64,000 bases of DNA from Syntrophales bacterium (GTDB taxonomy: Bacteria; Desulfobacterota; Syntrophia; Syntrophales; PHBD01), in NCBI GenBank assembly GCA_963668175.1, contig OY764159.1, positions 1,376,001 through 1,440,000 of the forward strand. The letters run 5' to 3'. Shown in pieces: positions 5,401 to 56,153 of this stretch. The first letter of the stretch is position 1, and each line of letters opens with the position of its first letter. Made by a program: the position numbers and the translations under genes. The notes below the pieces were generated by a model. The model made no database searches. It was not told where the DNA came from and worked only from the letters and a program-made list of their open reading frames with translations.

Positions 5401-5595
5401 GAAGTCGGCATCCCCTGGCATTTCGGCTGGATTACAACCATGGACAGGAAATACTCCCCGGGCGACAAGAAGGCCAAGGTGTTCACCAAGGGCGACGCGG
5501 CGAATCTCCTCGTCCCGACCATCGGCGACGCCAACACCATGATCCCGGAAAGCAAGGCTTTCATGGTCAATGTGATGAAGAAGGGGGTGAATTAA
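2488..5595 (+). CDS. fdnG: Formate dehydrogenase-N alpha subunit, selenocysteine-containing (Mo/W-bis-PGD), Tat-exported; 1035 aa with Sec188
   Basis: Tat motif TRRGFLK and CPYCSVGC...C 4Fe-4S motif. In-frame TGA at 3049-3051 in EHQARI-U-HSPTVPALAESFGRGAMTNHW joins ORFs 2488..3051 and 3100..5595. Confidence 0.97.
3052..3090 (+). promoter_or_regulatory. SECIS element of fdnG
   Basis: Hairpin CGGCTCT-GGC-AGAGTCG (3068-3084) just 3' of the Sec TGA. Confidence 0.8.
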
Positions 5596-5597
5596 TC

Positions 5598-6401
5598 ATG
5601 GCTGATATCGTGAAACTCATCGATGTATCGAAATGCACCGGATGCCGCGGCTGCCAGTTGGCCTGCAAGCAGTGGAACCAGATGCCGGCGCGGCAGACGA
5701 CGAATTATGGGACATACCAGAATCCGCCGGACCTGCAATGGAACACCTGGACGCTGATACGGTTCCAGGAGATTCCCGACAAGGACCGGGTCAAGTGGGT
5801 CTTCCGGAAGGACGGCTGCATGCACTGCACCGACGCCGCCTGCGTCAAGGTCTGTCCCAGCGGTGCCCTTTTTTATTCGGAACTGGGGACGGTCGGTCTC
5901 AACAAGGAACGCTGCATCGGCTGTAAGGAATGCGTCTCCGCCTGTCCCTTCGAGATCCCCAGGTACGACAATTTGACGGACAAGATCTACAAGTGCGATC
6001 TCTGCCTGTCGCGTCTCCAGAGCGATCTGACCCCGGCCTGCGTCAAGGCGTGCCCGACGGGTACCCTGACCTTCGGCGACAAGGAGAAGCTTCTGAAAAA
6101 GGCCTATGCCCGCGTAGAGGAACTGAAGAAGGAGGGCTTTGCCGACGCGAACGTATACGGGGACAAGTTCGTCAAGGGGACGCACGTGATGTACGTCCTG
6201 GACGAGAAGCCGTCCGTGTACGACAAGCTGCCGACGAGCCCGTCGGTGCCGCTGGCGGTCGTTCTCTGGAAGGACTTCCTGAAGCCGCTCAGCTTAATTG
6301 CGGCGGGCGGCGTGATAGCGGGCTCGTTCCTGCATTACATCATCCACGGGCCGAAACTGCCCGACGAAGAGCCCCGAGACAACGGCAAAGGAGGTGAATA
6401 G
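5598..6401 (+). CDS. fdnH: Formate dehydrogenase iron-sulfur beta subunit
   Basis: Four ferredoxin-type Cys motifs (CTGCRGCQLAC, CMHCTDAAC, CIGCKECVSAC, CDLC) and a C-terminal TM anchor. Confidence 0.95.
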   Translation: MADIVKLIDVSKCTGCRGCQLACKQWNQMPARQTTNYGTYQNPPDLQWNTWTLIRFQEIPDKDRVKWVFRKDGCMHCTDAACVKVCPSGALFYSELGTVGLNKERCIGCKECVSACPFEIPRYDNLTDKIYKCDLCLSRLQSDLTPACVKACPTGTLTFGDKEKLLKKAYARVEELKKEGFADANVYGDKFVKGTHVMYVLDEKPSVYDKLPTSPSVPLAVVLWKDFLKPLSLIAAGGVIAGSFLHYIIHGPKLPDEEPRDNGKGGE

Positions 6402-6403
6402 CC

Positions 6404-7069
6404 ATGAGAAAAGGACTTATTCAGGTAACGGACGCCTTTGAAAGGATCGTCCACTGGTCTTTGGCCGCTTCCTGCCTGATCCTGTGCATTACGGGACTGG
6501 GGATGATGTTCCATTCGCTGAACTTCATCGGCGACATCATGGGCGGGTTGAAATCGTTGAAGTACGTTCACAACTTTACGGGGGTCTTTTTCGCCTTTGC
6601 CCTGGCGTTCACGATCGGGATGTGGTGGAAGGAGGCGGGCATTTTTTCGATGCCCGAGGACCTGGACTGGATCATGTGCGGGGGCGGGTACGTCTGGCAT
6701 GTGGACAAGGTTCCGGAAGTGGGGAAGTACAATCCGGGTCAGAAGATGTTCTTCCTGGTGGTGGCGGGCTTCGGCGTGGTCATGGTGCTGACGGGTCTCG
6801 TGATGTGGTTTCCCTTGAGCTTTCCGTCATGGCTGGTGCGCTGGCTGTTTGTCCTGCACGCACTGGGCTTCGTGGCGATCTTTGCCTTTTTCTTCGTCCA
6901 TCTGTACCTGGGGACGGTGGGATCGCCGGGATCGTTGCCGGCGATGCTGACGGGCTGGGTGACGCGTGCGTGGCTTGCCAAGCAGCACCCCAAGTGGTTG
7001 AAGGAGATGGAGCACGAAGGGAAGCTCGTCGTCTACGGCGAAGAGAAGAAATCGGCCCACGGCCACTAG
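6404..7069 (+). CDS. fdnI: Formate dehydrogenase cytochrome b gamma subunit
   Basis: Four TM helices, ERIVHW, GKYNPGQK, conserved His ligands, and HPKW. Confidence 0.95.
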   Translation: MRKGLIQVTDAFERIVHWSLAASCLILCITGLGMMFHSLNFIGDIMGGLKSLKYVHNFTGVFFAFALAFTIGMWWKEAGIFSMPEDLDWIMCGGGYVWHVDKVPEVGKYNPGQKMFFLVVAGFGVVMVLTGLVMWFPLSFPSWLVRWLFVLHALGFVAIFAFFFVHLYLGTVGSPGSLPAMLTGWVTRAWLAKQHPKWLKEMEHEGKLVVYGEEKKSAHGH

Positions 7070-7795: not shown

Positions 7796-8392
7796 ATGAA
7801 ATCGATTTATACCATCCTGTTTGCGGTCACCGCCGCCGCGGTCTTTGCGGCATCTCCCGCATCCGCCCGTTCCGACGCCTTCAAGGACAACATCTACAAT
7901 CCCGGCCGTCTCAAGCCGACCGACAGCGTGCTTAAGGTGAAAGCTGGGGACCCGGCTCCCGATTTTACACTTCCGGCCGTTGCCGGAGGGACGGTTACGC
8001 TCAGCCGCTTCAGGGGCAGTAAGAATGTGGTCCTGTCCTTCGTTCCCGCCGCCTGGACACCCGTCTGTTCCGACCAGTGGCCCGGGTATAATATCGTCAA
8101 GGACCTCTTCGACGCCCACGACGCGGTGCTTCTGGGAATTACGGTGGACAACATACCGACGCTCTTTTCCTGGACGAACCAGATGGGGCGGCTGTGGTTC
8201 CCCGTCCTTTCCGATTTCTATCCCCACGGCAAAGCGGCGGCTGCTTACGGCATCCTGCGGTCCGACGGCACGTCGGAGAGGGCGCTCTTCGTGATCGACA
8301 AGAAGGGCATCATCCGCTACATCGATGTCCACGACATCAACGAAAGGCCGTCCCTGGAAGCCCTGGCAAAAGAACTGGAAAAGCTGAAATAG
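7796..8392 (+). CDS. Exported peroxiredoxin (AhpC/TSA, AhpE-like 1-Cys)
   Basis: Signal peptide, [13 protein letters not shown] (PxxxTxxC), and [15 protein letters not shown]. Confidence 0.88.
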
Positions 8393-8543
8393 GCGGCACT
8401 GCCGGATGAAGGCGGAGTCGATGCGATAAAAGCGGTCTTTCCGTCCGGTGTTTTTAATGCTATAAAGTAATCGTTTCTATTCCGGTTGCTGCACGTTCGT
8501 ATTGAAAAGGCGGCATCAAGGATTGCGAACGGAGAAGACTGTG

Positions 8544-9122
8544 ATGACGAAAAGGCCGATTTTGTATATGGCGGCATGTCTGCTCGCGTCGCTTTTCCTG
8601 GCGGCACCCGCCGGGGCGGCGTCGGTGCCGGCCGTCGGCGACAGTCTTCCGGACATTATCCTGGACGTTCCACAGGATACGGCAGATATGGGCTATCTGG
8701 GGCTGCCGCAAGGGGACACAACGTTCAGGCTGAAGGCGATCAAGGCCCGCGCCATGATCGTCGTCATATTCAACATCTATTGCCGCACATGTCAGGAGGA
8801 GGCACCCAATCTCAAGGTGCTCTACGAAAGGATTGCGGCCGATCCCGCTTCGGCGGGAAAGGTCAAGATCGTCGGGATCGGTATGGGCAATTCGGCTTAC
8901 GAGGTCGATAACTTCCGCAAGAGGTACCATATTCCCTTCCCGCTCTTTCCCGACAGGAAATTTACTGTCCATAAGCAGGTGGGCGAGGTGAGGACCCCGT
9001 ATCTCTTCGGCGTCAAGACGGGCGGCGACAGGTCTTTGCGCATCATATACTCCAGGGAGGGAGGCTTCCCGTCAGCGGACGAATTTCTCCGCCGGATCGT
9101 TCGCCTCTCCGGTCTGGAATAG
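8544..9122 (+). CDS. Second exported TlpA/ResA-like protein, paralog of 7200..7784
   Basis: FNIYCRTCQEE motif. Shares PDIxLx[14 protein letters not shown] and [11 protein letters not shown] with the upstream paralog. Start near 8541/8544 after GGAGA. Confidence 0.85.
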   Translation: MTKRPILYMAACLLASLFLAAPAGAASVPAVGDSLPDIILDVPQDTADMGYLGLPQGDTTFRLKAIKARAMIVVIFNIYCRTCQEEAPNLKVLYERIAADPASAGKVKIVGIGMGNSAYEVDNFRKRYHIPFPLFPDRKFTVHKQVGEVRTPYLFGVKTGGDRSLRIIYSREGGFPSADEFLRRIVRLSGLE

Positions 9123-10132: not shown

Positions 10133-10972
10133 CTAAGCCTGCAGATAGCTGTGAAGGCCCGGGAGGTAGTTTACCCCCAGGTACGTAAAGAGGACGGACG
10201 CGAAGCCGATGACGGCCATGAGCGCCAGGCGTTTGCCGCGCCAGTCGCGGACGTACCGGGCGTGAAGCATGGCGGCGTATATGATCCAGGTAATGAGGGA
10301 CCAGGTCTCTTTCGGGTCCCAGCTCCAGTACGATCCCCAGGCGTAATGAGCCCAGATGGAACCCGTCATGATCCCGATCGTAAGAAATACAAAGCCAAGG
10401 GCGACGCTGCGATAGATCGTCTCGTCCAGGCTCTCCGAAGAGGGGAGGCGTTCGCCGATTCCCTCGTGACGGGCCGTGATCCAATCCCTGAGAAAATAGA
10501 TCAGGCCGCATCCGAAAGCGACGGTGAAGGAGGCATAGCCCAGAAAACAGGTAACGACGTGGCTCGTCAGCCAGTTGCTTTGCAAGGCCGGGATCAGGGG
10601 TTGAATCTGGCTGCTGACGCCGGGAGCGATCGAGGCGTAGGCCATGGCGAGAAAAGCCGCGGGCATCACGAAGGCGCCGATGGCGCGGGAGCCGGTTCGC
10701 CATTCGATGAAGAGGTTGATGGCGACAATCGCCCAGGCGAAGAAGACCATCGATTCGTACAGGTTCGACAGGGGGATATGCCCGATGCCGAGATCGTAGG
10801 AAGCCTTCCAGCGGAGGAGCAGGGCGCATGTTTCGGCGGCGATGCCTATCCATGCGGCGATGGAGCCGACGCGGCCCCATAATTCCTTTCCGAAAATCAT
10901 GCGGACAAGATAGGCGACAAAGGAAAAGAAGTAGATAAATGTCACCCAGCTTAAAATCGTCGTATGCGTCAT
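10133..10972 (-). CDS. ccsA: Cytochrome c biogenesis System II heme-handling membrane protein (CcsA/ResC)
   Basis: WWD domain WAHYAWGSYWSWDPKETW, PALQSNWLTSHV, GLHSY. Confidence 0.95.
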   Translation of the reverse strand: MTHTTILSWVTFIYFFSFVAYLVRMIFGKELWGRVGSIAAWIGIAAETCALLLRWKASYDLGIGHIPLSNLYESMVFFAWAIVAINLFIEWRTGSRAIGAFVMPAAFLAMAYASIAPGVSSQIQPLIPALQSNWLTSHVVTCFLGYASFTVAFGCGLIYFLRDWITARHEGIGERLPSSESLDETIYRSVALGFVFLTIGIMTGSIWAHYAWGSYWSWDPKETWSLITWIIYAAMLHARYVRDWRGKRLALMAVIGFASVLFTYLGVNYLPGLHSYLQA

Positions 10973-12354
10973 GAAGCCAGTTCCTTTACAATTTGGGTAC
11001 GGATGCCGTCCATCAGCCGCTTCATGGATGCGGCGTTCCGGTTGCTGCGGCCGGCCACGGATATCCGCGTCTTTCCCTTAACGGTGTCGACGCGGACCCA
11101 GAAGCGATGGTGGAAGACGAAGTAGATGACGACAAGCCCCGCAATCATCAGGAACCCGCCGCCGGCGACGAGCGGCACGCCGGGGTCACGGGCTACCTGG
11201 AGGCCTGTATAGTATTGTTGTTCGACGCGGAGGAGGGCGAAGACATACGGCCTGAACAGGCCGGGGTTGAAGAGGGGGACTTCGTCCATGAGTCCCGGGT
11301 TCGATTCCTTGATCTCGTCGATATGCTGGAATATCCAGAACTGAACATCCGTTGCCGCCGACCGGACGCGGATTTTCGCCGCCGGTCCCATATTCATCAA
11401 GTTGTCTTCGACGCGGAGCACCTCGACCTTGGCGTCGCTTCCCGGGATGTCGAATACATCCCCGACGCTGATCATGAATCCTTTTTCCTTCAACGCTTTG
11501 CCGGTGACCGTGATGAAGGCGCGGCCGTCCGAAACGGAGCCGTAGCTTGCCTGGTAGAAACGGACGCCGCCAAACTCGAGGGGATGATTGACAAGCACCG
11601 GCCCCTGAAAGACCACCTTGCCGTCCTTAATGAAGCTGAGATCGGAGCGGTAGGTCTTCGGGGCGCCGTTTTCGTAGAAATCCACCATGAAGCGGTCGCA
11701 CCGGACGGAAAAGCCGAGGTCCCGTGTCCCCTTGCCGCCCCTGATCGAGGCAGCGTCGGCGGTTCCGCCCTCGACGATGTTCATGTAGGCGTTCAAGCCC
11801 CATAGGGAGCCGACGAGGGTCCCGGCGATCATAATGAGGATGCTCAAATGGACGGCGTAGACGCCAAAGAGGGAGAACCGCCCTTTGTCTCCGAAGAAGA
11901 CCGTCGTGCCTTCCTGGGAATCGTTCCTTTCGAGTCGGCGGAATTTGCCCCGCAGGAGCGCCTCGACGCGCTTCGCGACGTCTTCGCGCCCGGCGTCGGA
12001 GATCATGACCTGTTCGGGAGGCAGATTCTCGTAAAGCCCGGCCGGACCGGGAAAGGGGCTGGACGTGAATTGACGCAATGATGCGGGAAAACGCCTCCAT
12101 GAGCAGACGATAAGATTGACGGACAAGAGTCCCAGAAGGACGTAGAATACCAGGGAGTGGTAGATGTCGAAAAGCTGGAGATTGTGCAGGATGCCCACCG
12201 TGGTCGGCGACAGCTGCCGGGCGAATTCCGGCGCGTTTTCCTGCTGCGGGATGAAGGTCCCGACAATGGCCAGCAGGGCGATCAGGATCAGGAGGGTCAG
12301 GGTCAGTTTGAGGGAAGACAGGACCTTGAGAAGAGGGTTGTCGTTTTTCGGCAA
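10969..12354 (-). CDS. resB: Cytochrome c biogenesis System II protein (CcsB/ResB)
   Basis: GTFIPQ, FDIYHS, VHLSIL, VNHPL, YQASYG, TGLQVARDPG. Overlaps ccsA. Confidence 0.93.
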   Translation of the reverse strand: MPKNDNPLLKVLSSLKLTLTLLILIALLAIVGTFIPQQENAPEFARQLSPTTVGILHNLQLFDIYHSLVFYVLLGLLSVNLIVCSWRRFPASLRQFTSSPFPGPAGLYENLPPEQVMISDAGREDVAKRVEALLRGKFRRLERNDSQEGTTVFFGDKGRFSLFGVYAVHLSILIMIAGTLVGSLWGLNAYMNIVEGGTADAASIRGGKGTRDLGFSVRCDRFMVDFYENGAPKTYRSDLSFIKDGKVVFQGPVLVNHPLEFGGVRFYQASYGSVSDGRAFITVTGKALKEKGFMISVGDVFDIPGSDAKVEVLRVEDNLMNMGPAAKIRVRSAATDVQFWIFQHIDEIKESNPGLMDEVPLFNPGLFRPYVFALLRVEQQYYTGLQVARDPGVPLVAGGGFLMIAGLVVIYFVFHHRFWVRVDTVKGKTRISVAGRSNRNAASMKRLMDGIRTQIVKELAS

Positions 12355-12505: not shown

Positions 12506-12570
12506 CGACAAATCTGTCGATCCCTCAGCATAACGCTTGACAAGAACGGTCAAGTGGCGCTATTTTATTT
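12506..12570 (+). promoter_or_regulatory. Candidate promoter/operator region of the nrfD-like operon
   Basis: Palindrome CGACA-AATC-TGTCG (12506-12519). TTGACA at 12537 lies within the inverted repeat CTTGAC-N7-GTCAAG. Confidence 0.35.
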
Positions 12571-12612: not shown

Positions 12613-13869
12613 ATGGCCTCTTTGGGTAAAGCTTGGCAAGCCGTCGATGTGGCGGCCGCATTAAGGCGCGTCCTATCCGGCGGACCCGTCTATCTCTTTT
12701 TTCTTTTCCTGTTTGTCGCCCTTCTGCTGACCGGTGCCGGGGCCGGAGTTCATGCCCTGTTCGTCGCCGGCAGTCGCCACGCCTACGGGACATACCGGCA
12801 GGTTCCCGTGGCGATGCTGATATCCAGTTACGCCTTCTTTGCCATCGCCTCGACAGGGATCTGCATCATATCGTCCATCGGGCACGTCTTCGGGGTCAGG
12901 GACCTCATGCCGCTGGCCAAGCGATGCGTGCTCCTTTCGATCTTCACCATCCTGTCGGGGTTTTTCGTGATCGGCCTGGAGTTGGAGAATCCGATCCGGA
13001 TGGCCATCTACAACGTCATCTCACCGAATTTATCATCGAACATCTGGTGGATGGGCACCCTGTACGGCTTTGAAGTTGTCTTCCTCACGGTGGAGTTTAT
13101 CTTCCTCATGAGCGGCGATCACCGGACGGCGTCGAAAGTCGGCCTGGTGGGAGTTATCTGCGGAGTCGCCGCCATCAGCAACCTGGGCGGCGTTTTTGCC
13201 ATGATGCACGGCCGCGAGTTTTGGTACGGCCCGTTTCTGCCCGTCTTTTTCATCGCCTCCGCCATGATGACCGGCTGCGCCTTCATCATGTTCTTCACGA
13301 TCATCGCCTCTTTCGTCGGACGAAAGAAGATTGAAGGGGCGACGGCCCGGTCCCTGGAAGTCGTTTCGAACCTCGCGATGCTGATGATTGCCGTGGCCCT
13401 GTTTTTCACGATCTGGCGGATGGTGTCGCTCAGCGTCGCGGGCGAACGGCAGCTCCTGGAGCTCGAAGCCATGGTCTCCGGGGCCTTTGCCTTCAATTTC
13501 TGGGGCCTGGAAATCGTCTGCGGCATCGTCATCCCTTTCATCCTTCTTTGGCTCGGAAAGGGCAGAAGCATGTGGCTCATGTTCACGGCGTCGGCCCTCG
13601 TCATATTTTCGGTCTTCTTCGTTCGTCTGGATCTCGTCGTCATCGGGCAGATCGTGCCGTACTATATGGATCTCGGTGTCGTCGAGTATTCCCGCCTCAA
13701 CGCCTATATGCCGACCTTGCACGAAGGCCTGGTGGTGCTGGGCGGGATAGGCTTCTGCATGTCGGCCTTCCTCTTTGCCGAGAGGCTCTTCGACGGCTAC
13801 CCCGACGACGGCCATGACGACGCCGTATCGCACGAGGCTGCCGGGGACCGGGCGGAGGTGGCATCATGA
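12613..13869 (+). CDS. NrfD/PsrC-family quinol-interacting membrane anchor
   Basis: About 10 TM helices, LELENPIR, SPNLSSNIWWMGTLYG, RLDLVVIGQ. ATG 12613 follows GGAGA. Confidence 0.9.
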   Translation: MASLGKAWQAVDVAAALRRVLSGGPVYLFFLFLFVALLLTGAGAGVHALFVAGSRHAYGTYRQVPVAMLISSYAFFAIASTGICIISSIGHVFGVRDLMPLAKRCVLLSIFTILSGFFVIGLELENPIRMAIYNVISPNLSSNIWWMGTLYGFEVVFLTVEFIFLMSGDHRTASKVGLVGVICGVAAISNLGGVFAMMHGREFWYGPFLPVFFIASAMMTGCAFIMFFTIIASFVGRKKIEGATARSLEVVSNLAMLMIAVALFFTIWRMVSLSVAGERQLLELEAMVSGAFAFNFWGLEIVCGIVIPFILLWLGKGRSMWLMFTASALVIFSVFFVRLDLVVIGQIVPYYMDLGVVEYSRLNAYMPTLHEGLVVLGGIGFCMSAFLFAERLFDGYPDDGHDDAVSHEAAGDRAEVAS

Positions 13870-14618
13870 CAACGAACGAAACCGAAAGCAAGAAGACTGC
13901 GCGGGAAGGGAAAGGCGATATCCAGGACAGGGAACGACGCGAGTTCCTGAAGATCGGCCTGGTGATCACGGGCGTTTTTGCCGGCGGCACGGTCCTCTCC
14001 CTCGCTTCCATAGCCGGAAAGGGATCGTCAGCTGCTTTAAGCAAGGAGCCGTATCCGTATAAGCCTCACTACGGCATGGTGATAAGGCAGGACCGCTGCA
14101 TCGACTGCGAGCGCTGCATGGAGGCCTGCGTTGCCACCAATCACGTGCCGTCCTACGGCTGGCGGACCAATATCCTGGCCCGGGAAGTGCCCGCTGCCGT
14201 CGGGCAGAACCGGGAGTTCATCCCCATCCTCTGCAACCAGTGCAACAACCCGCCCTGCGTCCGGACCTGCCCGACCACGGCGACTTATAAAGATAAGAAA
14301 ACCGGGATTGTCGTCATGGACATCAAGAAATGCATCGGCTGCAAGTCCTGCATGATGGCCTGTCCTTACGATATGCGCTACTACAACGAAGAGAGGCAGG
14401 CCATCGACAAGTGCGATTTCTGTTTCGAATCGAGACTCAAGAAGGGTGAGAAGACCACGGCCTGCGCCGAGGCCTGTCCGGCCGACGTGCGGGTGTTCGG
14501 CGATATCTCCGATCCGGGGAACCGCGCCTATCAACTGATTCATCAGGTTCAGAAAGCCGTCTGGGTTTTGCGGCCGGAGGTCGGCGCCCTGCCGAACATC
14601 TTCTACACGAAGGGTTAA
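13866..14618 (+). CDS. NrfC/PsrB-family 4x[4Fe-4S] protein with Tat-like signal
   Basis: RREFLK, CIDCERCMEAC, CNQCNNPPCVRTCP, CIGCKSCMMACP, KCDFC...CAEACP. Confidence 0.92.
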   Translation: MTTNETESKKTAREGKGDIQDRERREFLKIGLVITGVFAGGTVLSLASIAGKGSSAALSKEPYPYKPHYGMVIRQDRCIDCERCMEACVATNHVPSYGWRTNILAREVPAAVGQNREFIPILCNQCNNPPCVRTCPTTATYKDKKTGIVVMDIKKCIGCKSCMMACPYDMRYYNEERQAIDKCDFCFESRLKKGEKTTACAEACPADVRVFGDISDPGNRAYQLIHQVQKAVWVLRPEVGALPNIFYTKG

Positions 14619-14628
14619 CGGAATTACG

Positions 14629-16950
14629 ATGAAAAAGCGTTTCGCCTTGATCACGATGATACTGGCCGTTCCGATGCTTGTGGCCGCCGGCGCCGCCACG
14701 GGAAGCTTTTCCGACGGGGGCGGCATCCTCTACACGGAGCCGGTGAAGGCGGTCCTCTTCAGCCATAAAGCCCACGTGGACGCGAAGGGGATTTCCTGCG
14801 ATCGCTGCCATTCTGGTCTCTTCGACATGGAAGCCCTGAAGGTCCAGCAGAAGAAGGATTTCGTCATGGAATCCCTCTACAAGGGCAAGTACTGCGGGGC
14901 CTGTCACAACGGCAAGGCGGCATTCGCCTCCGACACCCAGTGCGCTCGGTGCCATGTCCGTGCCGAGGGGATCAAGGCCGGATTCGTCAAGGGCAAAGAG
15001 AAAGCGGCTACGGTCTATAATACTTCGGTAACGATGGGCAAAGGGGAGAGCGCCGTCCGTTTCCGTCATGAAACGCACACCGCCAAGGCCGCATGCGCCG
15101 ACTGCCACCCCCGCCTCTTCAAAGCGAAAAAAGGCGCCGACCGCATTGCCATGGCCGATCACGGCAAAAACAAGTACTGCTTCTCGTGCCATGACGGCCG
15201 CAAGGCCTCTACGTGGAACGAATGCAGCACCTGCCATGCCAAGGTGCCGGTCCCTTCCCAGGCCGTTCTCTTCGGGAAGGGCGAGAAGGCGGTGCCCTTC
15301 AACCACAAGAGCCACACGGCGTCCCTGAAGTGCGCAAGCTGTCATACGAAACTATTCCCCTACAAGAAAACCGGGAAGAAGATCGCCTTCGCCGACCATG
15401 CCGCGAACAAGGACTGCTTCGCATGCCACGCCAGCTCGGGAAAAGGTTCGGCCTCTTACGACTGCAACCGCTGCCATGCGAAGACAAAGACATCCGCGGC
15501 TGCCGCGCCTGCTGCGGGGCCTGCCGGGCCCGCCCAGCCCCTTCTTTTCGGCCAGGGGGCGAAGGCTGTAGCCTTCAACCACAAGAGCCATTCGGGGGGC
15601 TCGATGCAGTGCGCAAGCTGCCATACGAAGCTCTTCCCCTACAAGCGGAGCGGCGAAAAGATCGCCTTCGCGGATCATGCCACGAACAAGAACTGCTTCG
15701 CGTGCCATGCCAGCTCGGGAAAAGGCTCGGCAACCTATACCTGCAATCTCTGCCATAAGAGTCAGGCCTCCGCCGCCCCGGCCGGGAACAAGGCCGGGAG
15801 CAAGAACGGCTGCCTCAACTGCCATGCCAATGACGCTGCCATGAAGGCGATGGTCAAACCGCCGGCGATCCCCACCGAAGGAGAGGGCTGAGCGGGGGCG
15901 CCTCCGCCAGTTAAGGCGGAGGAGTATTATAAAGGCTACCTTGTCGATCAGGGGCTGGTCGGAACGGACGTGCACCTCAGGATGGGGTGCAAGGCCTGCC
16001 ACGGCGGCGACGAAAACGGCGGATCGAAGGCCGCCGCCCACAAAGGCCTGATCGTCCGGCCCTCCGACGACCTCAAAGCCTGCGGGAACTGCCACAAGGC
16101 CATTGCCGACACATACGCCAAATCCCTCCATTACACGACCATCGGCCAGCGCGAGGGCGTCAAGGCCCGTTTCTCCAAGGCGGAACTGGCCATGTTCGAC
16201 CGGAAAGTATTCAACCAGTCCTGCCGCAGCTGCCACGCCTCCTGCGGCGACTGCCACGTTAAATCGCCTCCCGTCTCGGGTATTTCCCTGGGACTCATCG
16301 CCGGGCACAAGTTCGTCAAAAAGAACGAGGGGAAGACCTGCGCCTTCTGCCACGGAGGACGCGTCTATCCCGAATTCACCGGCGAATACGGCGGGTCCCC
16401 CGACGTCCACTACCAGAAGGGCATGATGTGCATGGACTGCCATAAGAAGTCGGAGGTCCACGGCGACGGCGCGATGGCGATGAACAAGCAGTCCGTCAAG
16501 GACCGGCCCCGGTGTGTAGCCTGCCATAAGCTCGACGGCAAGCAAATGGCCCATAACGTCCACCAGGACAAGGTGACCTGCCAGGGGTGCCACGTCGGCG
16601 GCGAGTACCGCCAATGCGAGAACTGTCACGTGGGTCCCGGCTCCATGTCGAAGCCGGGTTTCATCCTGGGACGGAATCCCCGGGACAACAAGACGTTGAC
16701 CACGCTCCGGTTGATCCCCACGGTCAGGGACACGTTCAAGCCGGCAGGCATCGCCATGAGCAGCTTCGATGCTGTGCCCAACTACTGGGATTCCCCCGTC
16801 CACAGCATCAAGAAGCGTACGGCACGGACCAGGTCTTGCGACAGCTGCCATGCGCAGCGGGAAGGGTTCCTGAAGGAGGAAACACTCATCAAGGACGGCT
16901 CCAAGGCCAACCGGAACCTGATCTATAACCTGAAACCCCTGGGTAAATAA
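14629..16950 (+). CDS. Multiheme c-type cytochrome, 23 CxxCH motifs, with predicted selenocysteine (U421) read-through; 773 aa
   Basis: Signal peptide. 13 CxxCH before and 10 after the in-frame TGA at 15889-15891 (PTEGEG-U-AGAPPPVKAEEYYKGYLV). The frame stays open into the 15970..16950 ORF, and a SECIS-like hairpin follows the TGA. Confidence 0.82.
15265..15759 (+). repeat. Internal tandem duplication of a c7-like triheme domain
   Basis: About 15265-15480 and 15541-15759 both encode LFGxGxKAVxFNHKSH...CASCHTKLFPYK...KIAFADHAxNKxCFACHASSGKGSAxYxCNxCH. Confidence 0.9.
15892..15925 (+). promoter_or_regulatory. Putative SECIS element of the multiheme cytochrome
   Basis: Perfect 8-bp stem CCTCCGCC/GGCGGAGG (15901-15922). 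The loop AGTTAA begins after a 17-nt spacer from the TGA, with G at loop position 2. Confidence 0.75.
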
Positions 16951-17014
16951 TTGCCGGCCGGGAATTCAAACGGCGCGGCAGAACCTGCAAGAAACCAATC
17001 CAATGCCAGACCCG

Positions 17015-17045
17015 GCCCGGCAGGGCTATCCTGCCGGGCTTTATT
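17015..17045 (+). terminator. Rho-independent terminator after the cytochrome operon
   Basis: GCCCGGCAGG-GCTAT-CCTGCCGGGC followed by TTTATT. Confidence 0.75.
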
Positions 17046-17267
17046 GCTTGCCGTAGAGAGGGGCTATTGAGCCCTTCCTTGAAAATAGCCGGGAGATGGG
17101 TTACACTGCGCCGTCATCTTCGAAAGGCCTGTCTCTTTCATTCGGGCCTTTCCGGGGAAGGCGGCGGAGTTGTCCCGAGGGCCTGAAGAAGGCCGGCGTT
17201 CCGTCCGGAAGGCTGGCTCAACGCGGGCCCGCCGTGCGGAACACATTACAACGGCGGAGGATCGAAG

Positions 17268-18212
17268 ATGAAGAAGATATTGTGGTTTGGCCTGGGTCTG
17301 GTCGTTATTCTCGTTGGCGCCCTGTACTTCCTGTATTCCTCTTCTTTTGTGTACGAGCAGGCGATCAACGCCGAGAGGGCCGCTGCCGGCCTCGTCAGGA
17401 AGAACATCCAGGTGGACGACCACCGTATTGCCTACCTGGAAGGCGGGGCGGGGGAGGTCGTCGTCCTGATCCACGGTTTCGGCGCCGAAAAAGACAATTG
17501 GGACCGCTTTGCCAAGTACCTCCAGCCCGGCTGCCAGGTCTTCATCCCCGATCTGCCGGGATTCGGCGAGAGCAGCAAACTGCCGGAAGCCCGCTATGAC
17601 ATAGCGAGCCAGGTCAAGCGTCTCAACCGGATAGCCGAGGCGCTCAATCTCCGGAAGTTTCACCTGGCGGGCAATTCCATGGGGGGGATGATCGCCTGCG
17701 AATACGCGGCCCAGTATCCCGAGAAGGTCCTGTCCCTCGGTCTCTTCGCCCCCGGGGGAATCTTTCCGCCCCACAAGAACGAGCTGATGAAGCTCCTCGA
17801 AAAGGGAGAGAACCCCCTCGTAGTGAAGACCCCGGAAGACTTCGACCGGATCATGTCGCTGCTTTTTGTTTCGCCTCCGCCTTTTCCGGCGCCCGTCAAA
17901 AAGTTCCTCGCGGATCGCGCCATGGCCAACGCGGCTTTCAACGAAAAAGTCTTCAAGGACATGAGCGCCGATTTCCGCACGCCGGACTCGCCGCTCGCGC
18001 CGTTTCTCCCCAAAGTCGCCGCCCCGACCCTGATCGTCTGGGGCGACAAGGACAAGATCCTCGATGTTTCGAGCGTCTCCGTCCTGGAGAAGGGGCTTAA
18101 GAACCGCCAGACGATTATCATGAAGGACACGGGCCACGTCCCTATGGTGGAAAAACCGCAGGAATCGGCAGCCGCATACCGGTCCTTTATCGAAAAGGCG
18201 GTAAAACGCTAA
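17268..18212 (+). CDS. Membrane-anchored alpha/beta hydrolase (lipase/esterase)
   Basis: HGFG, DLPGFGES, GNSMGG nucleophile elbow, WGDKD, GHVPMVE. Confidence 0.92.
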   Translation: MKKILWFGLGLVVILVGALYFLYSSSFVYEQAINAERAAAGLVRKNIQVDDHRIAYLEGGAGEVVVLIHGFGAEKDNWDRFAKYLQPGCQVFIPDLPGFGESSKLPEARYDIASQVKRLNRIAEALNLRKFHLAGNSMGGMIACEYAAQYPEKVLSLGLFAPGGIFPPHKNELMKLLEKGENPLVVKTPEDFDRIMSLLFVSPPPFPAPVKKFLADRAMANAAFNEKVFKDMSADFRTPDSPLAPFLPKVAAPTLIVWGDKDKILDVSSVSVLEKGLKNRQTIIMKDTGHVPMVEKPQESAAAYRSFIEKAVKR

Positions 18213-18216
18213 GATC

Positions 18217-19347
18217 ATGGTTTCAAGCCGCTTCCATCCCGCACGTCTTTTCCGGCGGCGGTGGTTAAAGATTGCCCTTCCCGTCGCCGCCGTCCTCGCG
18301 GCCGTCACCGTCTGCGCCGTATTCAGGGCCGAGGGCTATATCAAGGAAAAGCTGGAGGCCAGCCTGGGCAAGGGCGTATCCATCGGTTCCGCCTCCCTGG
18401 GATTCCGGTCCATCGCATTCCGGGACGTCCGCATGAAGGACGCCGCCGGGCGGGATGCCCTCCATATCCGCGAGGTTTCCTGCGGTTTTCGGGTTTTCGA
18501 CCTCCTGACGGGGCGACGGGCGATACGCCTGATCGCGTTCCGGGAGCCGGATATCCACCTCGCGATCGACGCACATGGGAAGCTGACCGGCCCGGCCCTG
18601 GGCGTGCCGCCTGCCCGCGGGGGCAAGGAAGAAGATCAGAAGCCCTGGGTCGTGGGGCGGGTCGCGGTCAGCGGCGGGAGCCTCGATTTTTCCGATCACA
18701 GGGACCCGCACCGGCCGGTGCGCATCGAGGTCCGGGATATCCGGTTGAGCCTCGACAATCTCGCCCTGCCCGCGGACGGCCGGTTTTCGGCATACGAACT
18801 TTCGGCAACGATTCCCGGCCGTACGGGAAAAGGCACGCTTCAGAGCCGCGGCCGGATTCAATTCGGCCCCTACAACGCCGACGGTTCCCTGAAGCTCGTC
18901 AACCTCGACATCACGCCCTTTGAACCTTATTTTCAGAAGGATTACAGTATCTCTCTCCACAGGGGCTTTCTGGACCTGGACCTCTCGGCACGCATCGCCG
19001 GCGGGCACATCAAGGGCGATGGCAGGGCCGTCCTGAAAGACCTGAGCGTAAGCGACAAGGCCGGCAGCGGAGGGCAATTCGCAGGAATCCCCGTTTCGCT
19101 GATGGTGGCCTTTCTGGAACGGAATAACCATCAAATCCCCCTGCGCTTCGCCGTGGAAGGCGATCTTAAGAATCCCGCCTTCAGCCTCCGGGAGAACCTT
19201 GTCCAGGGGATCGTCTCCGGGACGGCCGAAGCCGTCGGGCATGTCCTGCATCTGCCGGGCCGGGCCGTCTCCGGCGGGAGCGTTTCGACCCTCAAATCGA
19301 CGCTCGGCCGCCTGGGGGAACGCCTCAAAAAGGGCATAAGCCCATGA
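18217..19347 (+). CDS. DUF748/AsmA-like envelope protein
   Basis: N-terminal TM, beta-rich body, LDITPFEPY, and VEGDLKNPAFS. Confidence 0.7.
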   Translation: MVSSRFHPARLFRRRWLKIALPVAAVLAAVTVCAVFRAEGYIKEKLEASLGKGVSIGSASLGFRSIAFRDVRMKDAAGRDALHIREVSCGFRVFDLLTGRRAIRLIAFREPDIHLAIDAHGKLTGPALGVPPARGGKEEDQKPWVVGRVAVSGGSLDFSDHRDPHRPVRIEVRDIRLSLDNLALPADGRFSAYELSATIPGRTGKGTLQSRGRIQFGPYNADGSLKLVNLDITPFEPYFQKDYSISLHRGFLDLDLSARIAGGHIKGDGRAVLKDLSVSDKAGSGGQFAGIPVSLMVAFLERNNHQIPLRFAVEGDLKNPAFSLRENLVQGIVSGTAEAVGHVLHLPGRAVSGGSVSTLKSTLGRLGERLKKGISP

Positions 19348-19501: not shown

Positions 19502-21190
19502 TTGCCTGTGGACCGTGCCGGCTGCAAGAAATGGATCCTCTGGATCGTCCCTTTTCTCCTTTATGTGGGGCTGATTTATCATATGCCGCTCATGGAGCCG
19601 GACGAGGGGCGGTACAGCCTTATCCCGAGCACCATGAACCGGACGGGCGACTACGTCACCCCGCACCTGAAAGAGGTCGTCTATATCGAAAAGCCTCCGC
19701 TCGCCTATTGGGCGACTGCCGTAGCCTTCAAGCTGTTCGGGGAAAACGCCTTCTCTTCGCGTCTCTTTTCAGCCCTTTGCGCCTGGGGGTGCATCCTCCT
19801 GTGCTGGCGCATCGGCCGCTATTTCCATGACGAAAAGACGGGCCTATACGCCGCCGCCGTCCTCACGATGTGCCTCTTTCACCTGGCGATCGGCCGGATC
19901 AATATCCTCGATATGCCCCTGGCCCTGTTCGTCTGCCTCGCCGTCTGGTCAGGATTCCGCTATTTTTCCGATGAGGAACGGGACAGGAAGCACATATGGC
20001 TCTTTTATCTCTTCTGCGGTCTCGCGTTTCTCACGAAAGGCCTGATCGGGATCGTCTTCCCCGGGGCCATTCTCGTCATCTGGCTCCTCGTCTCGCGGCG
20101 CTGGCGGGACCCTTTTCGCCTCGTGTCCCCCGCAGGCATTGCGATTTTCCTTGCTGTGACCCTGCCGTGGCTCGTTCTCATCCAGAAGGCGAATCCGGAT
20201 TTCTTCTGGTTCTTCTTCATCCAGGAACACTTCCTCCGGTACACGACGACGATGCATCACCGGAACGAGACGGTCTTCTATTTCATCCCCGTGCTCTTGG
20301 CCGGTGTGATCCCCTGGCTCGGCTATTTTGCCCAGGCGGGGAGGGGCATCCGCGGACAGTGGAGGGTGTTGTTTGACAGTAAGGAAAAGAAGTTCCTTTT
20401 CACCTGGATCGCCTTCATTTTCCTCTTCTTTTCGGTATCCTCCTCGAAACTGATTCCGTATATCGCACCCCTCTTTGTCCCGCTGTCCGTCCTGATCGGT
20501 CACGTCTTCCGGATCTACGAGGAGCGTGTCGCCGCCGCAAAGGGGCCGACCGGCTGGAGGCCTGCGGATTATCTCCCCATCTTCGTTCAGACGGGGCTTT
20601 TCTATGTCGCTCTCGTTGCCCCCGTCTATATCGCCAAGCAGCGGGTCAGTCTGGAGGCCTGGTGGCCGTGGATCGTTGGCCCCGCGTTGGTGCTCGTTTT
20701 CTTCCTGTTCCTGCCGGAGATGATGAGGAGAAAATACCGCCGCGGCTGGTTCCTTGCGATCTATGCCGTGGCCGGGGTTTTCTTCGCGACGCTGACCTTT
20801 CCCGTCGCCCATTACGCGGCACCTTTCAAATCGGCCGCTCCCGTCGTCGCCGCCATGAAAATCCACATCCCGCCGGGAGAGGTCCCGTATCAGTTCAATA
20901 CGGATATTTACGGGATCGATTTTTACACGGGGATACGCACGCCCATCGTCGACGATATCGGCGAACTGGAGTTCGGCGTGGCGCGTATTCCGGCCGAGGA
21001 GAAGAAACGCTACTTCCTCATGTCGCCGGAATTTTTCCGTCTTTACCGGGAAGGACGGCCGATGTATGTCATCACCGAAGGGAAGGGGAATCTCCTGCGC
21101 CTGAAGCAGGAAGCCCCGGACATGAAAATCCTGTGGAACAACGGGAATTATCAGATCCTTCTTCTGCAGAAAGGCCAAAACGGAGGTTAG
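19502..21190 (+). CDS. arnT: Lipid A 4-amino-4-deoxy-L-arabinose transferase (ArnT/GT83)
   Basis: EPDEGRY, EKPPLAYW, LTKG, SSSKLIPYI. Multi-TM protein heading the arn cluster. Confidence 0.88.
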   Translation: MPVDRAGCKKWILWIVPFLLYVGLIYHMPLMEPDEGRYSLIPSTMNRTGDYVTPHLKEVVYIEKPPLAYWATAVAFKLFGENAFSSRLFSALCAWGCILLCWRIGRYFHDEKTGLYAAAVLTMCLFHLAIGRINILDMPLALFVCLAVWSGFRYFSDEERDRKHIWLFYLFCGLAFLTKGLIGIVFPGAILVIWLLVSRRWRDPFRLVSPAGIAIFLAVTLPWLVLIQKANPDFFWFFFIQEHFLRYTTTMHHRNETVFYFIPVLLAGVIPWLGYFAQAGRGIRGQWRVLFDSKEKKFLFTWIAFIFLFFSVSSSKLIPYIAPLFVPLSVLIGHVFRIYEERVAAAKGPTGWRPADYLPIFVQTGLFYVALVAPVYIAKQRVSLEAWWPWIVGPALVLVFFLFLPEMMRRKYRRGWFLAIYAVAGVFFATLTFPVAHYAAPFKSAAPVVAAMKIHIPPGEVPYQFNTDIYGIDFYTGIRTPIVDDIGELEFGVARIPAEEKKRYFLMSPEFFRLYREGRPMYVITEGKGNLLRLKQEAPDMKILWNNGNYQILLLQKGQNGG

Positions 21191-21197
21191 GTGAACC

Positions 21198-22343
21198 ATG
21201 AAGATCAGAGAAGATTTCCTGCCGTTAAATAAACCCTCCATCGGGTCCGCCGAGATCGAGCGGGTCGTCGACTGCCTGAAATCGGGCTGGATTACCACGG
21301 GGCCCCACTGCCTCACCTTTGAGGAACGGTTCCGAAAGCTCACCGGGGCCGCTCACGCCATAACGCTCTCGTCGGCTACGGCGGGAATGCACCTTGCGCT
21401 CGCCGCCCTCGGGATCGGTCCGGGCGACGAAGTGATCACCCCGTCCATGACGTTCGCCTCGACGGTGAACATGATCGTCCTTCTCGGGGCCACGCCCGTC
21501 TTCGTCGACTGCGATTACGATACCTTGCTGATCGACGCCGGCCGGATCGAGGAGAAGATCACCGACAGGACGAAGGCCGTCATTCCGGTCCACTTCGCCG
21601 GGGCGCCCGCCGACATGGACCCGATCGTCGCCCTGGCGGGACGGCGCGGACTCGCTCTGATCGAAGACGCAGCCCATGCCGTCGGTACGTACTACAAGGG
21701 TGTCCATGCCGGCGGATTCGGCGGGATGGCGATATTCTCCTTCCACCCCATCAAAAATATCACGACGGGTGAGGGCGGCCTCGTGACATTGAACGGCGAC
21801 GATCTGAACCAGAAGATCAGGCTGCTTAGGTTCCACGGCATCGAGCGGGACGCCTGGAAGCGCTACGGAAAGGGAGGAAATCCCGAGTACGACATCCAGG
21901 AGGCGGGATACAAATACAATCTGACGGACATCCAGGCGACGCTGGGCATCGGGCAGCTCGATCGTCTGGACGAGTTCAACCGGCGCCGTGCCGAACTGAT
22001 CGGTCTTTACATGGAAGGATTGCAAGGTATCGACGGCATCGACCTGCCCGGCGTTCCTTCATATCCCCATGTCCACCCCTACAATCTGATGATCGTCAAG
22101 ACCCTGGCCATGCCGAGGGAAATCCTGATGGAGAAACTCTCCGAGTACAATATCGGCTACGGCTTCCACTTCCCGGCCTGTCACCTTCTGAGCCATATCA
22201 GGCGGCTTTTCGGCACGAAAGACGGCATGCTCCCCGAGACGGAGCGGGCGGCCGGGCGGATCCTGTCGCTTCCCCTCTTTCCCGATATGAAAGATAGCGA
22301 CGTATATTATGTTTGCGATGCTCTTCGGGATATATTAAGATGA
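21198..22343 (+). CDS. arnB: UDP-4-amino-4-deoxy-L-arabinose aminotransferase (DegT family)
   Basis: SGWITTGP, IEDAAHA, FSFHPIKNITTGEGG, GYKYNLTD. Confidence 0.9.
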   Translation: MKIREDFLPLNKPSIGSAEIERVVDCLKSGWITTGPHCLTFEERFRKLTGAAHAITLSSATAGMHLALAALGIGPGDEVITPSMTFASTVNMIVLLGATPVFVDCDYDTLLIDAGRIEEKITDRTKAVIPVHFAGAPADMDPIVALAGRRGLALIEDAAHAVGTYYKGVHAGGFGGMAIFSFHPIKNITTGEGGLVTLNGDDLNQKIRLLRFHGIERDAWKRYGKGGNPEYDIQEAGYKYNLTDIQATLGIGQLDRLDEFNRRRAELIGLYMEGLQGIDGIDLPGVPSYPHVHPYNLMIVKTLAMPREILMEKLSEYNIGYGFHFPACHLLSHIRRLFGTKDGMLPETERAAGRILSLPLFPDMKDSDVYYVCDALRDILR

Positions 22344-22365
22344 CGCGAAATTTTGGGAGCAAGCC

Positions 22366-23334
22366 ATGGAATCGATGATTTCCGTCGTCATACCGGTTTA
22401 TAACGAGGAGAAAAACCTCGACGCCCTCATAGGGCGCCTGCGGCCCGTCATGGCGGGAATGAAGCGGCCCTATGAAATCATCCTGATCGACGACGGCAGC
22501 CGCGACCGTTCCCTGGAAATGCTCAAGGCGTTTGCCGGGAAACCCGACGTCCGCGTCGTCGAGCTGACCCGGAATTACGGGCAGCACGCGGCGATCCTGG
22601 CCGGTTTTTCCGTCGTCCGGGGGCAGATCGTCGTCACCATGGATGCGGACCTCCAGAACCCGCCGGAGGAGATTCCGCGCCTCGTTTCCGTCATGGAAGA
22701 GGGTGCCTACGACGTCGTCGGGACGATCCGCAAGGGACGTCAGGATTCTCTGTTCCGCATCCTGCCCTCTAAAATCGTCAATATGGTGGCGAGAAAGATC
22801 ACGGGAGTCGGGATGCGCGACTGGGGCTGCATGCTCCGGGCCTACCGCCTGCCGGTGGTCGAGCGGATGATCAACTGCCACGAGCATTCGACTTTCATTC
22901 CCGCCCTGGCGACGTTTTTCGGCAAGAGGGTGACGGAGATAGAGGTTGCCCACGAGGAGCGCTTCGGAGGGAAATCGAACTACCCGCTGCGAAAGCTGAT
23001 CAACCTCCAGTTCGACCTGGTGGCCTCCTTTTCGGAGTTGCCCATGAAGCTCCTCATGTACGGCGGCATCGCCATGGCCCTGGCCGGCGTCTGCTTCGGC
23101 ACCTTCCTGGCCGTGGCCCGTCTGGTCTACGGCGCCCTCTGGGCGGCGCAGGGTGTCTTCACGCTCTTTGCCATCCTCTTTCTCTTCGTGGGGATGCAGT
23201 TTTTCGCCCTGGGCGTCATCGGGGAGTACATCGGCCGGATCTACCGCGAAGTTCGGAAACGGCCCGAATACGTCATCGAGCGCGTTTATGAGTGTATCCA
23301 GGGGGATGCCGCCCCTCCCGGTGACAGTAAATGA
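22366..23334 (+). CDS. arnC: Undecaprenyl-phosphate L-Ara4FN transferase (GT2)
   Basis: VIPVYNE, DDGSRD, RNYGQHAA, DADLQNPPEEIP, and two C-terminal TM helices. Confidence 0.9.
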   Translation: MESMISVVIPVYNEEKNLDALIGRLRPVMAGMKRPYEIILIDDGSRDRSLEMLKAFAGKPDVRVVELTRNYGQHAAILAGFSVVRGQIVVTMDADLQNPPEEIPRLVSVMEEGAYDVVGTIRKGRQDSLFRILPSKIVNMVARKITGVGMRDWGCMLRAYRLPVVERMINCHEHSTFIPALATFFGKRVTEIEVAHEERFGGKSNYPLRKLINLQFDLVASFSELPMKLLMYGGIAMALAGVCFGTFLAVARLVYGALWAAQGVFTLFAILFLFVGMQFFALGVIGEYIGRIYREVRKRPEYVIERVYECIQGDAAPPGDSK

Positions 23335-48624: not shown

Positions 48625-48712
48625 CGCCTCTCCGCTTTGCAAAAAAAGGGCGCAAGCGCCTGAACCCACGGGGATTCAAACGCTTGCGCGCGTTGTCGGT
48701 TAATGTTTGCGC

Positions 48713-50143: not shown

Positions 50144-50155
50144 AGAAGTTCTCCT

Positions 50156-50701: not shown

Positions 50702-50719
50702 AATCGTGGGATTCTCCTT

Positions 50720-52504: not shown

Positions 52505-52606
52505 CGTCTGACTTTCCTCCTCTCTTTATCTATTCCCGAGATCAGCGCGGCGGAACCTCGCTTGAGAGGAAGCCGCGAATCACTCCGGATCATTTCGTTT
52601 ATTATT

Positions 52607-55663: not shown

Positions 55664-55739
55664 TTGAATTGTTCCTCCTTCACGCGAAAAACTTTTGCGG
55701 CCGGGTCGCTCAACCGGACCCTGCCTGAGTCCTATTCCG

Positions 55740-56123: not shown

Positions 56124-56153
56124 AACCAAGCCTCTCATTCGTTATGCTTTGTT

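Follow-up and report, generated by a model that had tools for sequence, protein, structure and literature searches.

In a 64,000-nucleotide (nt) stretch of the Syntrophales bacterium assembly GCA_963668175.1 (contig OY764159.1, positions 1,376,001-1,440,000 of the forward strand; hereafter the window), we analysed an operon in which an nrfD-like gene, an nrfC-like gene and a multiheme cytochrome c gene follow one another head to tail on the plus strand. The cytochrome is predicted to be a selenoprotein, read through an in-frame TGA codon, and its C-terminal part, a selenocysteine (Sec)-containing module with 11 heme motifs (the Sec-undecaheme module), appears to represent an undescribed selenoprotein family. 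The best overall explanation of the operon, to which we give an even chance, is that it encodes a menaquinol:polysulfide-type terminal reductase that works without molybdenum. An earlier reading of the same DNA (the original prediction) had described a tightly coupled nrfD-nrfC-cytochrome operon closed by a terminator and had proposed the Sec-containing cytochrome as the catalytic partner of an undescribed quinol-linked reductase or oxidase. The layout proved accurate: nrfC overlaps nrfD by 4 nt, the start codon of the cytochrome gene lies 10 nt past the end of nrfC, and a terminator hairpin closes the operon (Table 1).

The identity of the TGA codon was examined in two sets of relatives. A scan of species-representative genomes with a 10-sequence alignment returned 542 relatives, and the best 80 of these were fetched and checked for Sec; they are 60-70% identical to the window protein, and their hosts are nearly all metagenome-assembled genomes (MAGs) of Syntrophales, Smithella or Syntrophus. 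All 80 loci contain an in-frame TGA within the motif GEG-TGA-AGAPPPV, as the original prediction of a Sec codon implied, and the protein sequence is conserved on either side of it. When residues 385-773 were used to search 1.84 billion representative proteins, 505 relatives were returned at E≤0.001. Among 157 homologs examined, 51 spanned the TGA column, and 14 of these distant homologs carried Cys there, the remaining 37 having various residues or gaps. Fifty-four of the 157 started no more than 38 residues past the Sec column, with 40 of these starts falling at +3 to +12, a pattern left by gene callers that restart past a stop. Several distant homologs (P0029, P0037, P0040 and P0053; e.g. 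GEGWAGE) have Trp at the Sec column, which could reflect TGA read as Trp by a gene caller that used another genetic code.

Downstream of the codon, a hairpin resembling a selenocysteine insertion sequence (SECIS) was conserved among 34 sequences, with 83.8% of cells paired and compensatory changes in two pairs. Its covariation was 0.070, compared with 0.020 in shuffled alignments, a value that was reached by 0 of 500 shuffles and that lay above all slid controls; the same bases code for APPPV, so that coding constraint contributes to this conservation. A scan of the whole window against Rfam at gathering thresholds returned no match, thus no curated RNA family, SECIS or otherwise. Decoding of UGA as Sec by this genome follows from the Sec codon within fdnG, the formate dehydrogenase gene of the same genome (U188, codon 3049-3051, ...HQARIUHSP...). 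With a conserved in-frame UGA, coding conservation downstream of it, a stem-loop and homologs that carry Cys, the TGA at 15889-15891 is almost certainly a true selenocysteine codon. The reading of this TGA as a genuine stop or a lesion, which would leave either a 420-aa 13-heme cytochrome and a 326-aa protein starting from GTG 15970 or a pseudogene, agrees with open reading frame (ORF) calling under table 11, which yields ORFs of exactly 420 and 326 aa, and with the split form in which many database entries are annotated, but it is close to refuted by the in-frame conservation of the 26 codons that separate the TGA from GTG 15970 (AGAPPPVKAEEYY...), by the retention of the TGA in every locus checked, by the Cys homologs that read straight through and by the conserved hairpin.

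The read-through protein of 773 aa carries 23 CXXCH motifs behind an N-terminal signal-peptide-like sequence. The motifs are arranged as 12 in four c7-type triheme domains, a single one, the in-frame TGA and a further ten. The N-terminal repeats scored above the cutoff of the TIGR04257 model and thus belong to the c7-type triheme 'nanowire' domains, and the protein also matched the Pfam MtrC/MtrF domain II/IV. Domains 3 and 4 (15244-15777, residues 206-383) are a diverged tandem duplicate with about 70% nucleotide identity; fused relatives have two c7 domains and seven CXXCH motifs before the Sec, whereas the window protein has four and 13. The Sec module is an 11-heme unit, and in stand-alone homologs a signal peptide is followed by a CXXCH motif, the Sec loop and ten hemes. 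In the close family (81 sequences), the 11 heme motifs are accompanied by nine conserved non-motif His residues and one Met, and no Cys outside the heme motifs is conserved. Bis-His ligation of all hemes, which the original prediction had named as a possible objection to a catalytic role, is unlikely because only nine conserved non-motif His residues are available for 11 hemes. As judged from this alignment, at least one heme of the Sec module probably has an unusual distal ligation. Two antisense ORFs lie within the cytochrome gene (15352-16851, 499 aa, and 14437-15345, 302 aa, both on the minus strand), and the same antisense ORF was found again in 22 related loci; we take these ORFs to be a by-product of the GC-rich coding sequence and not genes.

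No NCBIfam model exists for the Sec-undecaheme module. Neither the MccSep/ExtKL model (NF040886) nor that of the octaheme tetrathionate reductase (OTR; TIGR04315) matched it at E≤10, and by these profile comparisons the module belongs to neither family. Its sole NCBIfam similarities were to ExtN, ExtO and ExtM of the Geobacter selenite/tellurite operon, at 34 bits (cutoff 200) and an E-value of 1.4e-8. No MccSep-like chain was found in sequence or fold searches of the PDB, in a copy that extends to 2026-04-08 and may predate the MccSep structure. As far as term searches of a 2026 review of prokaryotic selenoproteins show, its cytochrome-type entries are only ExtKL, the GSU2204 family and OTR-family proteins, and the Sec-undecaheme family is missing from its selenoprotein table. 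Literature searches on selenocysteine-containing and CXXCH-type cytochromes, on rhodaneses and on Smithella and Syntrophus undecahemes likewise did not find the family.

A multiheme selenoenzyme acting on polysulfide is nevertheless not without precedent, and the window protein would not be the first: MccSep, an unrelated five-heme selenoprotein with a rhodanese gene beside it, was published in 2026 as a polysulfide reductase essential for the respiration of elemental sulfur (PMC13510729). Like MccSep/ExtKL (GSU2937-2936 of Geobacter sulfurreducens), the window cytochrome is a periplasmic multiheme protein with one Sec on a Gly/Pro loop (DGUP in the former, GEGUAGAPP in the latter). Both families show Sec/Cys variation among homologs, both have a rhodanese in the gene cluster (ExtH and a tandem rhodanese, respectively), and both occur mainly in Desulfobacterota. 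MccSep differs in having five hemes, a late Sec in a C-terminal immunoglobulin-like domain and a requirement for a heme-ligating Cys, whereas the Sec described here lies between heme motifs 1 and 2 of 11, in a module that has no conserved non-motif Cys. The electron donor of MccSep was stated to be unknown (PMC13510729), whereas the Sec module is fused or adjacent to a quinol module. OTR-family proteins, some of which are annotated as selenoproteins (table in PMC13188914), resemble the Sec module in being multiheme cytochromes and act on S-S bonds, as is proposed for the module, and OTR (1sp3) gave the best full-length structural alignment to our model, but this alignment is not significant (E 0.058), and OTR has eight hemes, not 11.

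The first two genes of the operon encode the components of such a quinol module. NrfD matched Pfam NrfD (PF03916) with 73 bits (cutoff 25.8; 4.4e-20), the match extending from position 5 to position 311 of the 313 in the profile, and its sequence contains some ten hydrophobic segments, which places it in the NrfD family. None of the NCBIfam equivalogs (NrfD, PsrC, TtrC, DsrP, QrcD, HmcC and others) matched it at E≤0.01, and no PDB chain was found up to E≤10 with either the single sequence or a 20-sequence profile; NrfD is for these reasons a divergent member of its family. Searches of the ESM Atlas returned generic NrfD clusters only. An upstream TTG (12586) is a possible alternative start, but ATG 12613 is favoured because a 418-aa database protein is 100% identical to the product that it predicts. 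NrfC matched Fer4_11 at 84 bits and has a twin-arginine translocation (Tat) signal (RERREFLK, of the form RRxFLK) and 16 Cys residues in four cluster motifs, as in the NrfC/PsrB four-cluster ferredoxins; its closest PDB match was PsrB of T. thermophilus (2vpw_B, 1.6e-37). The scores of NrfC against the NCBIfam equivalogs DsrO (167, cutoff 200), TtrB (167, cutoff 416) and NrfC (162, cutoff 378) were all below the respective cutoffs, at E-values of about 1e-48 to 1e-49.

The association of these genes recurs in relatives. The order nrfD-nrfC-c7 cytochrome was observed in 20 loci, that is, in every locus where the gene after nrfC was visible, which argues that the operon of the window did not arise by chance. 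Sixteen of the 80 loci have the fused type found in the window, nrfD-nrfC-[c7 + Sec module]. In four others (L030, L034, L039 and L069), a stand-alone Sec-undecaheme gene has a separate nrfD-nrfC-c7 operon no more than a few kb away; raw ORF calls give the c7 cytochromes 10-12 CXXCH motifs (12 each in L039 and L069). Two loci (L062 and L079) have a partial nrfD at the locus edge. Since c7 and Sec-undecaheme genes are separate but close together in these four loci, the 12+11-heme protein of the window has the appearance of two such neighbouring proteins fused into one. On the basis of the gene order, the 4-nt overlap, the 10-nt gap and the recurrence in 20 loci, we infer that NrfD, NrfC and the cytochrome very probably form a quinone-linked complex, in which, as originally proposed, the Sec-containing protein is likely to serve NrfCD as terminal partner. 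The usual order in stand-alone loci is Sec cytochrome, tandem rhodanese, a multiheme cytochrome of 600-900 aa, a second rhodanese, a CbcL-like c+b cytochrome, resB and ccsA; the CbcL-like cytochrome was found in 23 stand-alone loci. The quinol module is thus interchangeable, being either NrfCD-c7 or a CbcL-like cytochrome.

The absence of a molybdoenzyme subunit from the operon, also claimed originally, was borne out in the window and in relatives. Of the window ORFs scanned, FdnG alone is a molybdopterin protein, and it has iron-sulfur and cytochrome b subunits of its own (fdnG, 2488-5595). A molybdoenzyme encoded near NrfCD homologs, which would have spoken against the proposal, was not found within about 7-10 kb at the 22 loci with a homologous NrfD or NrfC. 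None of the 34 large unassigned ORFs scanned in these 22 loci contained a molybdopterin domain; 41 such ORFs had been collected, and seven were dropped because their clusters were scanned through other members (PriA and MetK types). No FdnG-like sequence was present in any of the 80 loci. The architecture itself is not undescribed, contrary to the original prediction: MccACD, NrfABCD and NhcABCD are established examples of NrfCD modules that serve periplasmic multiheme cytochromes and lack a molybdopterin subunit (PMC8076601). The predicted window complex shares with them the NrfD-like membrane subunit, the four-cluster ferredoxin and the periplasmic cytochrome, which in MccACD and NrfABCD is the catalytic subunit (PMC8076601). 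It differs from them in that its cytochrome is unrelated to MccA, NrfA and NhcA at the family level, contains Sec and has a c7 wire fused to it.

The neighbours of the Sec gene in relatives suggest sulfur chemistry. A tandem rhodanese lies directly 3' of it in 16 of 16 fused loci, in three of six loci of the nearby type and in 31 of the 54 stand-alone loci with room for one. This rhodanese bears a signal peptide, its active-site loop reads CDTGK or CDSGR, and its sequence is similar to that of ExtH from the Geobacter ext cluster (1.8e-21, below the cutoff); in homolog P0005, C-terminal rhodanese domains are fused to the cytochrome. A CoA-disulfide-reductase-like protein with a C-terminal rhodanese domain is encoded a few kb from the operon in one locus (L061:15012-16712, minus strand). 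In seven loci a regulator of the CsoR family (CsoR/RcnR) is encoded close upstream of the module (median distance about 2.9 kb); three maps were checked, and in these its gene stood directly before nrfD (L002 and L006) or before nrfD or the Sec gene (L039). Some members of this family, such as CstR, sense persulfides, and the repressor could be a sulfane-sulfur-responsive switch. In 19 loci (L039, L042, L048, L069 and others), a FAD_binding_2 flavoprotein of about 520 aa with a Tat signal, similar to flavocytochromes or fumarate reductases, is paired with a 177-aa c3-type cytochrome near the Sec-cytochrome genes.

Taken as a working model, these components would form a chain from the quinone pool to a Sec active site. 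NrfD, with ten transmembrane helices and no cofactor, would exchange electrons and protons with menaquinol, and the Tat-exported NrfC would pass the electrons on to the cytochrome, in which they would travel down the 12-heme c7-type wire to the 11-heme module. The Sec-undecaheme module, whose Sec is carried by a loop rich in Gly and Pro that follows heme motif 1 of the module and precedes heme motif 2, would be the catalytic end; we consider a catalytic role of this module probable. By analogy with MccSep, the selenolate may attack a chalcogen-chalcogen bond, such as that of polysulfide or persulfide sulfur, the heme chain then supplying electrons that reduce the adduct and release sulfide. 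The likeliest substrate would be sulfane sulfur, as polysulfide or as persulfide delivered by the periplasmic rhodanese found in relatives, with selenite or related chalcogen compounds as alternatives; we put the assignment of sulfane sulfur or polysulfide just short of an even chance. Electron flow toward substrate reduction is the best reading of direction. Chalcogen catalysis is the best supported role because the Sec is strictly kept, rhodaneses are recurrent partners, and the 11 hemes are matched by nine His and one Met with no spare Cys. A bolder variant of the mechanism has the selenolate as the distal ligand of the one heme that lacks a conserved His or Met; we know of no natural Sec-ligated heme that has been described.

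Among the closest known systems is PsrABC (Wolinella; Thermus, 2vpw), whose job, the transfer of electrons from quinol to polysulfide through NrfD/PsrC and NrfC/PsrB, would be the same. PsrABC is associated with the Sud sulfurtransferase, which the periplasmic rhodanese-type sulfur-carrier partner resembles. The two systems differ in the catalytic subunit: the window operon has no PsrA molybdopterin subunit, and catalysis would rest on Sec and heme and not on molybdenum. Sulfur or polysulfide had headed the original list of candidate substrates and gains support from the rhodanese neighbours and the rhodanese fusion, the substrate itself being a deduction from this context. We also advance, tentatively and with less confidence than any of the parts above, the wider proposal that the Sec-undecaheme proteins (GEG-U-AGAPPPV) are a second multiheme selenoenzyme family, unrelated to MccSep, which is wired to menaquinone through NrfCD-c7 or CbcL-like modules, is served by rhodaneses and acts as a molybdenum-free respiratory reductase of sulfur or polysulfide in Syntrophales (Smithella, Syntrophus and relatives).

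Several observations weigh against a sulfane sulfur reductase. A pure electron conduit would account just as well for the matches to c7 'nanowire' and MtrC-like domains. A chalcogen residue is not universal in the wider family, because Pro occupies the Sec column in the closer homologs P0004 and P0006 (48-53% identical, GVGPAG), and many distant homologs have other residues there (W, Y, H and others). No adjacent rhodanese was found in 23 of the 54 stand-alone loci, and the window has none at all (tblastn, best E 2.1), so that the evidence for a sulfur link comes from relatives with 60-70% identity. The AlphaFold2 model of the Sec module is of good overall quality (pLDDT 83.5, pTM 0.79), but the pLDDT of the Sec loop is below 50, and the position of Sec relative to the hemes is not fixed by it. 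A Foldseek search of the PDB with this model returned nothing at E≤0.001; the top insignificant matches were an undecaheme cytochrome of Carboxydothermus (E 0.03) and OTR 1sp3 (TM 0.42/0.38, probability 0.89), and catalytic multiheme cytochromes (OTR, HAO, NrfA and MccA) appeared only among such insignificant matches. Finally, no activity, expression or selenium-incorporation data for the Sec-undecaheme family were found in the sources searched.

The main rival is that the cytochrome is a non-catalytic conduit, in which NrfCD feeds a heme wire for extracellular or interspecies electron transfer and Sec has a structural, redox-buffering or regulatory role. The c7 domains resemble GSU1996, the dodecaheme 'nanowire' cytochrome (PDB 3ov0), whose 12 hemes in four c7-type triheme domains are matched by the N-terminal 12 hemes of the window protein; the difference is that here the array makes up only the N-terminal half, with the Sec-undecaheme module attached and the gene placed behind nrfDC. 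The match to MtrC/MtrF domain II/IV, the further large multiheme cytochromes in stand-alone operons and an MtrB/PioB porin gene near one locus (L016) point the same way, and the multiheme cytochromes of Smithellaceae are at present taken to indicate direct interspecies electron transfer (PMC13685792). Strict retention of a costly Sec in 80 of 80 loci would be unexpected for plain electron hopping, however, and neither the recurrent periplasmic rhodanese nor the rhodanese fusion has a role in a wire. Nor was a porin-like family a conserved neighbour among the neighbour clusters scanned, which were part of the 30 most frequent. We therefore regard the conduit as unlikely, though it is the strongest of the competing explanations. 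The MtrB/PioB outer-membrane porin and a second NrfD gene are located at L016:15247-17406 and L016:12671-13861, both on the minus strand.

Somewhat less likely than a conduit is a terminal reductase for another substrate, namely selenite or tellurite, tetrathionate or thiosulfate, an organic disulfide or a nitrogen oxyanion. The Ext similarities of the Sec module, the reduction of selenite by MccSep as well (PMC13510729) and the structural alignment to OTR all favour such a substrate. These similarities are far under the family cutoffs or insignificant, and the rhodanese partners favour sulfane sulfur over oxyanions; no nitrogen-cycle genes were present among the conserved neighbour clusters scanned.

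An oxidative direction, in which the Sec module would oxidise sulfide, persulfide or thiosulfate and the electrons would pass through NrfC and NrfD to menaquinone, as in Qrc or Nhc, seems improbable. Rhodaneses also serve sulfur oxidation, which counts for it. NrfD-family complexes run either way, Qrc and Nhc being quinone reductases (PMC8076601), and the chemistry of MccSep was likened by its authors to the reverse of that of TsdA and SoxAX (PMC13510729). Against this direction, most of the hosts are MAGs of Syntrophales, anaerobes to which few terminal acceptors are ascribed (PMC13685792), an obvious sink for the resulting quinol was not found in the loci, and the sole characterised Sec-containing multiheme cytochrome is a reductase. 

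Both kinds of system involved are already known: quinol-linked reductases made up of NrfCD and a cytochrome, and a multiheme selenoenzyme, the latter since 2026. What appears new in the window operon is the selenoprotein family, together with the way in which it is coupled directly to quinol modules; the lack of a molybdoenzyme is not new. The Sec-undecaheme family is widespread, with its 542 relatives in species-representative genomes and 505 representative protein clusters. If its members reduce sulfane sulfur, they would be a second, independent invention of S-S cleavage by Sec and heme, and the operon would name the route from quinol to enzyme that the MccSep work left open. They would also provide an overlooked electron sink for syntrophic Syntrophales, whose cytochromes in methanogenic and in hydrocarbon-degrading communities would then be read differently; Smithellaceae are described as nearly devoid of terminal reductases (PMC13685792). 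Many database entries are split at the UGA, and cytochrome gene counts in Syntrophales MAGs are distorted by unrecognised Sec codons.

Table 1. Predicted features of the nrfD-nrfC-cytochrome operon and of its genomic context, in window coordinates
Feature	Position	Strand	Evidence
nrfD-like integral membrane quinol/quinone subunit	12613..13869	+	418 aa from ATG 12613; Pfam NrfD
nrfC/psrB-like periplasmic four-cluster ferredoxin, Tat signal	13866..14618	+	Fer4_11
773-aa 23-heme periplasmic cytochrome c, predicted selenoprotein	14629..16950	+	read through TGA 15889-15891
Four c7-type triheme domains (12 hemes)	14734..15777	+	TIGR04257 210 bits (cutoff 40), 4 stretches; PDB 3ov0_A 3.2e-49
Heme motif 13 (CLNCH), first heme of the Sec-undecaheme module	15811..15825	+	stand-alone homologs: signal peptide, then CLNCH-type motif
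Predicted UGA selenocysteine codon, residue 421, motif GEG-U-AGAPPPV	15889..15891	+	in-frame TGA at aligned position, 80/80 loci
Decaheme part of the Sec-undecaheme module, 10 CXXCH	15892..16947	+	505 representative relatives at E≤0.001
SECIS-like hairpin, 8-bp stem CCUCCGCC/GGCGGAGG, loop AGUUAA	15901..15922	+	starts 10 nt past UGA
Sigma-70-like promoter, TTGACA-18-TATTTT	12537..12566	+	10/12 consensus positions; consensus match only
Intrinsic terminator hairpin, 12 bp (9 GC), T-rich tail	17014..17040	+	operon end
ccsA + resB (System II cytochrome c maturation), divergent; context, outside operon	10133..12354	-	Pfam ResB 2.7e-97, Cytochrom_C_asm 7.4e-52
FDH-N-type formate dehydrogenase operon fdnGHI (fdnG with Tat signal, fdnI cytochrome b)	2488-7069	+	fdnG split by Sec codon

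The promoter-like site falls within the 230 bp that separate the divergently transcribed resB and nrfD. The module is flanked by ResB in 34 related loci and by CcsA in 17. Between the formate dehydrogenase operon and ccsA-resB, the plus strand encodes an AhpC/TSA peroxiredoxin (1e-33) and a TlpA/ResA-like redoxin (7796-9122); both have the thioredoxin fold and may be thiol-reducing partners in cytochrome c maturation. A nearby formate dehydrogenase and a nearby hydrogenase had been proposed as electron sources. The former is present as fdnGHI, whereas no hydrogenase was found among the large ORFs of the window, all of which were scanned; the sole match with a hydrogenase name was PF01292 (Ni_hydr_CYTB), on the gamma subunit of the formate dehydrogenase (6404-7069).

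Downstream of the operon, the longest ORF, on the minus strand (17064-18308, 414 aa), was considered as the next gene and rejected, as it had no family match and the ORF that overlaps it clearly encodes a hydrolase; the likely downstream gene is this alpha/beta hydrolase (17268-18212, plus strand, 1e-37). Farther away on the plus strand, four successive ORFs of 500, 530, 1167 and 254 aa (48707-56459) had no Pfam match at 1e-5, and an Arn-like cluster for aminoarabinose modification of lipid A (19502-26148) comprises PMT_2 (ArnT-like), a DegT aminotransferase, GT2, a formyltransferase, an epimerase and a deacetylase.

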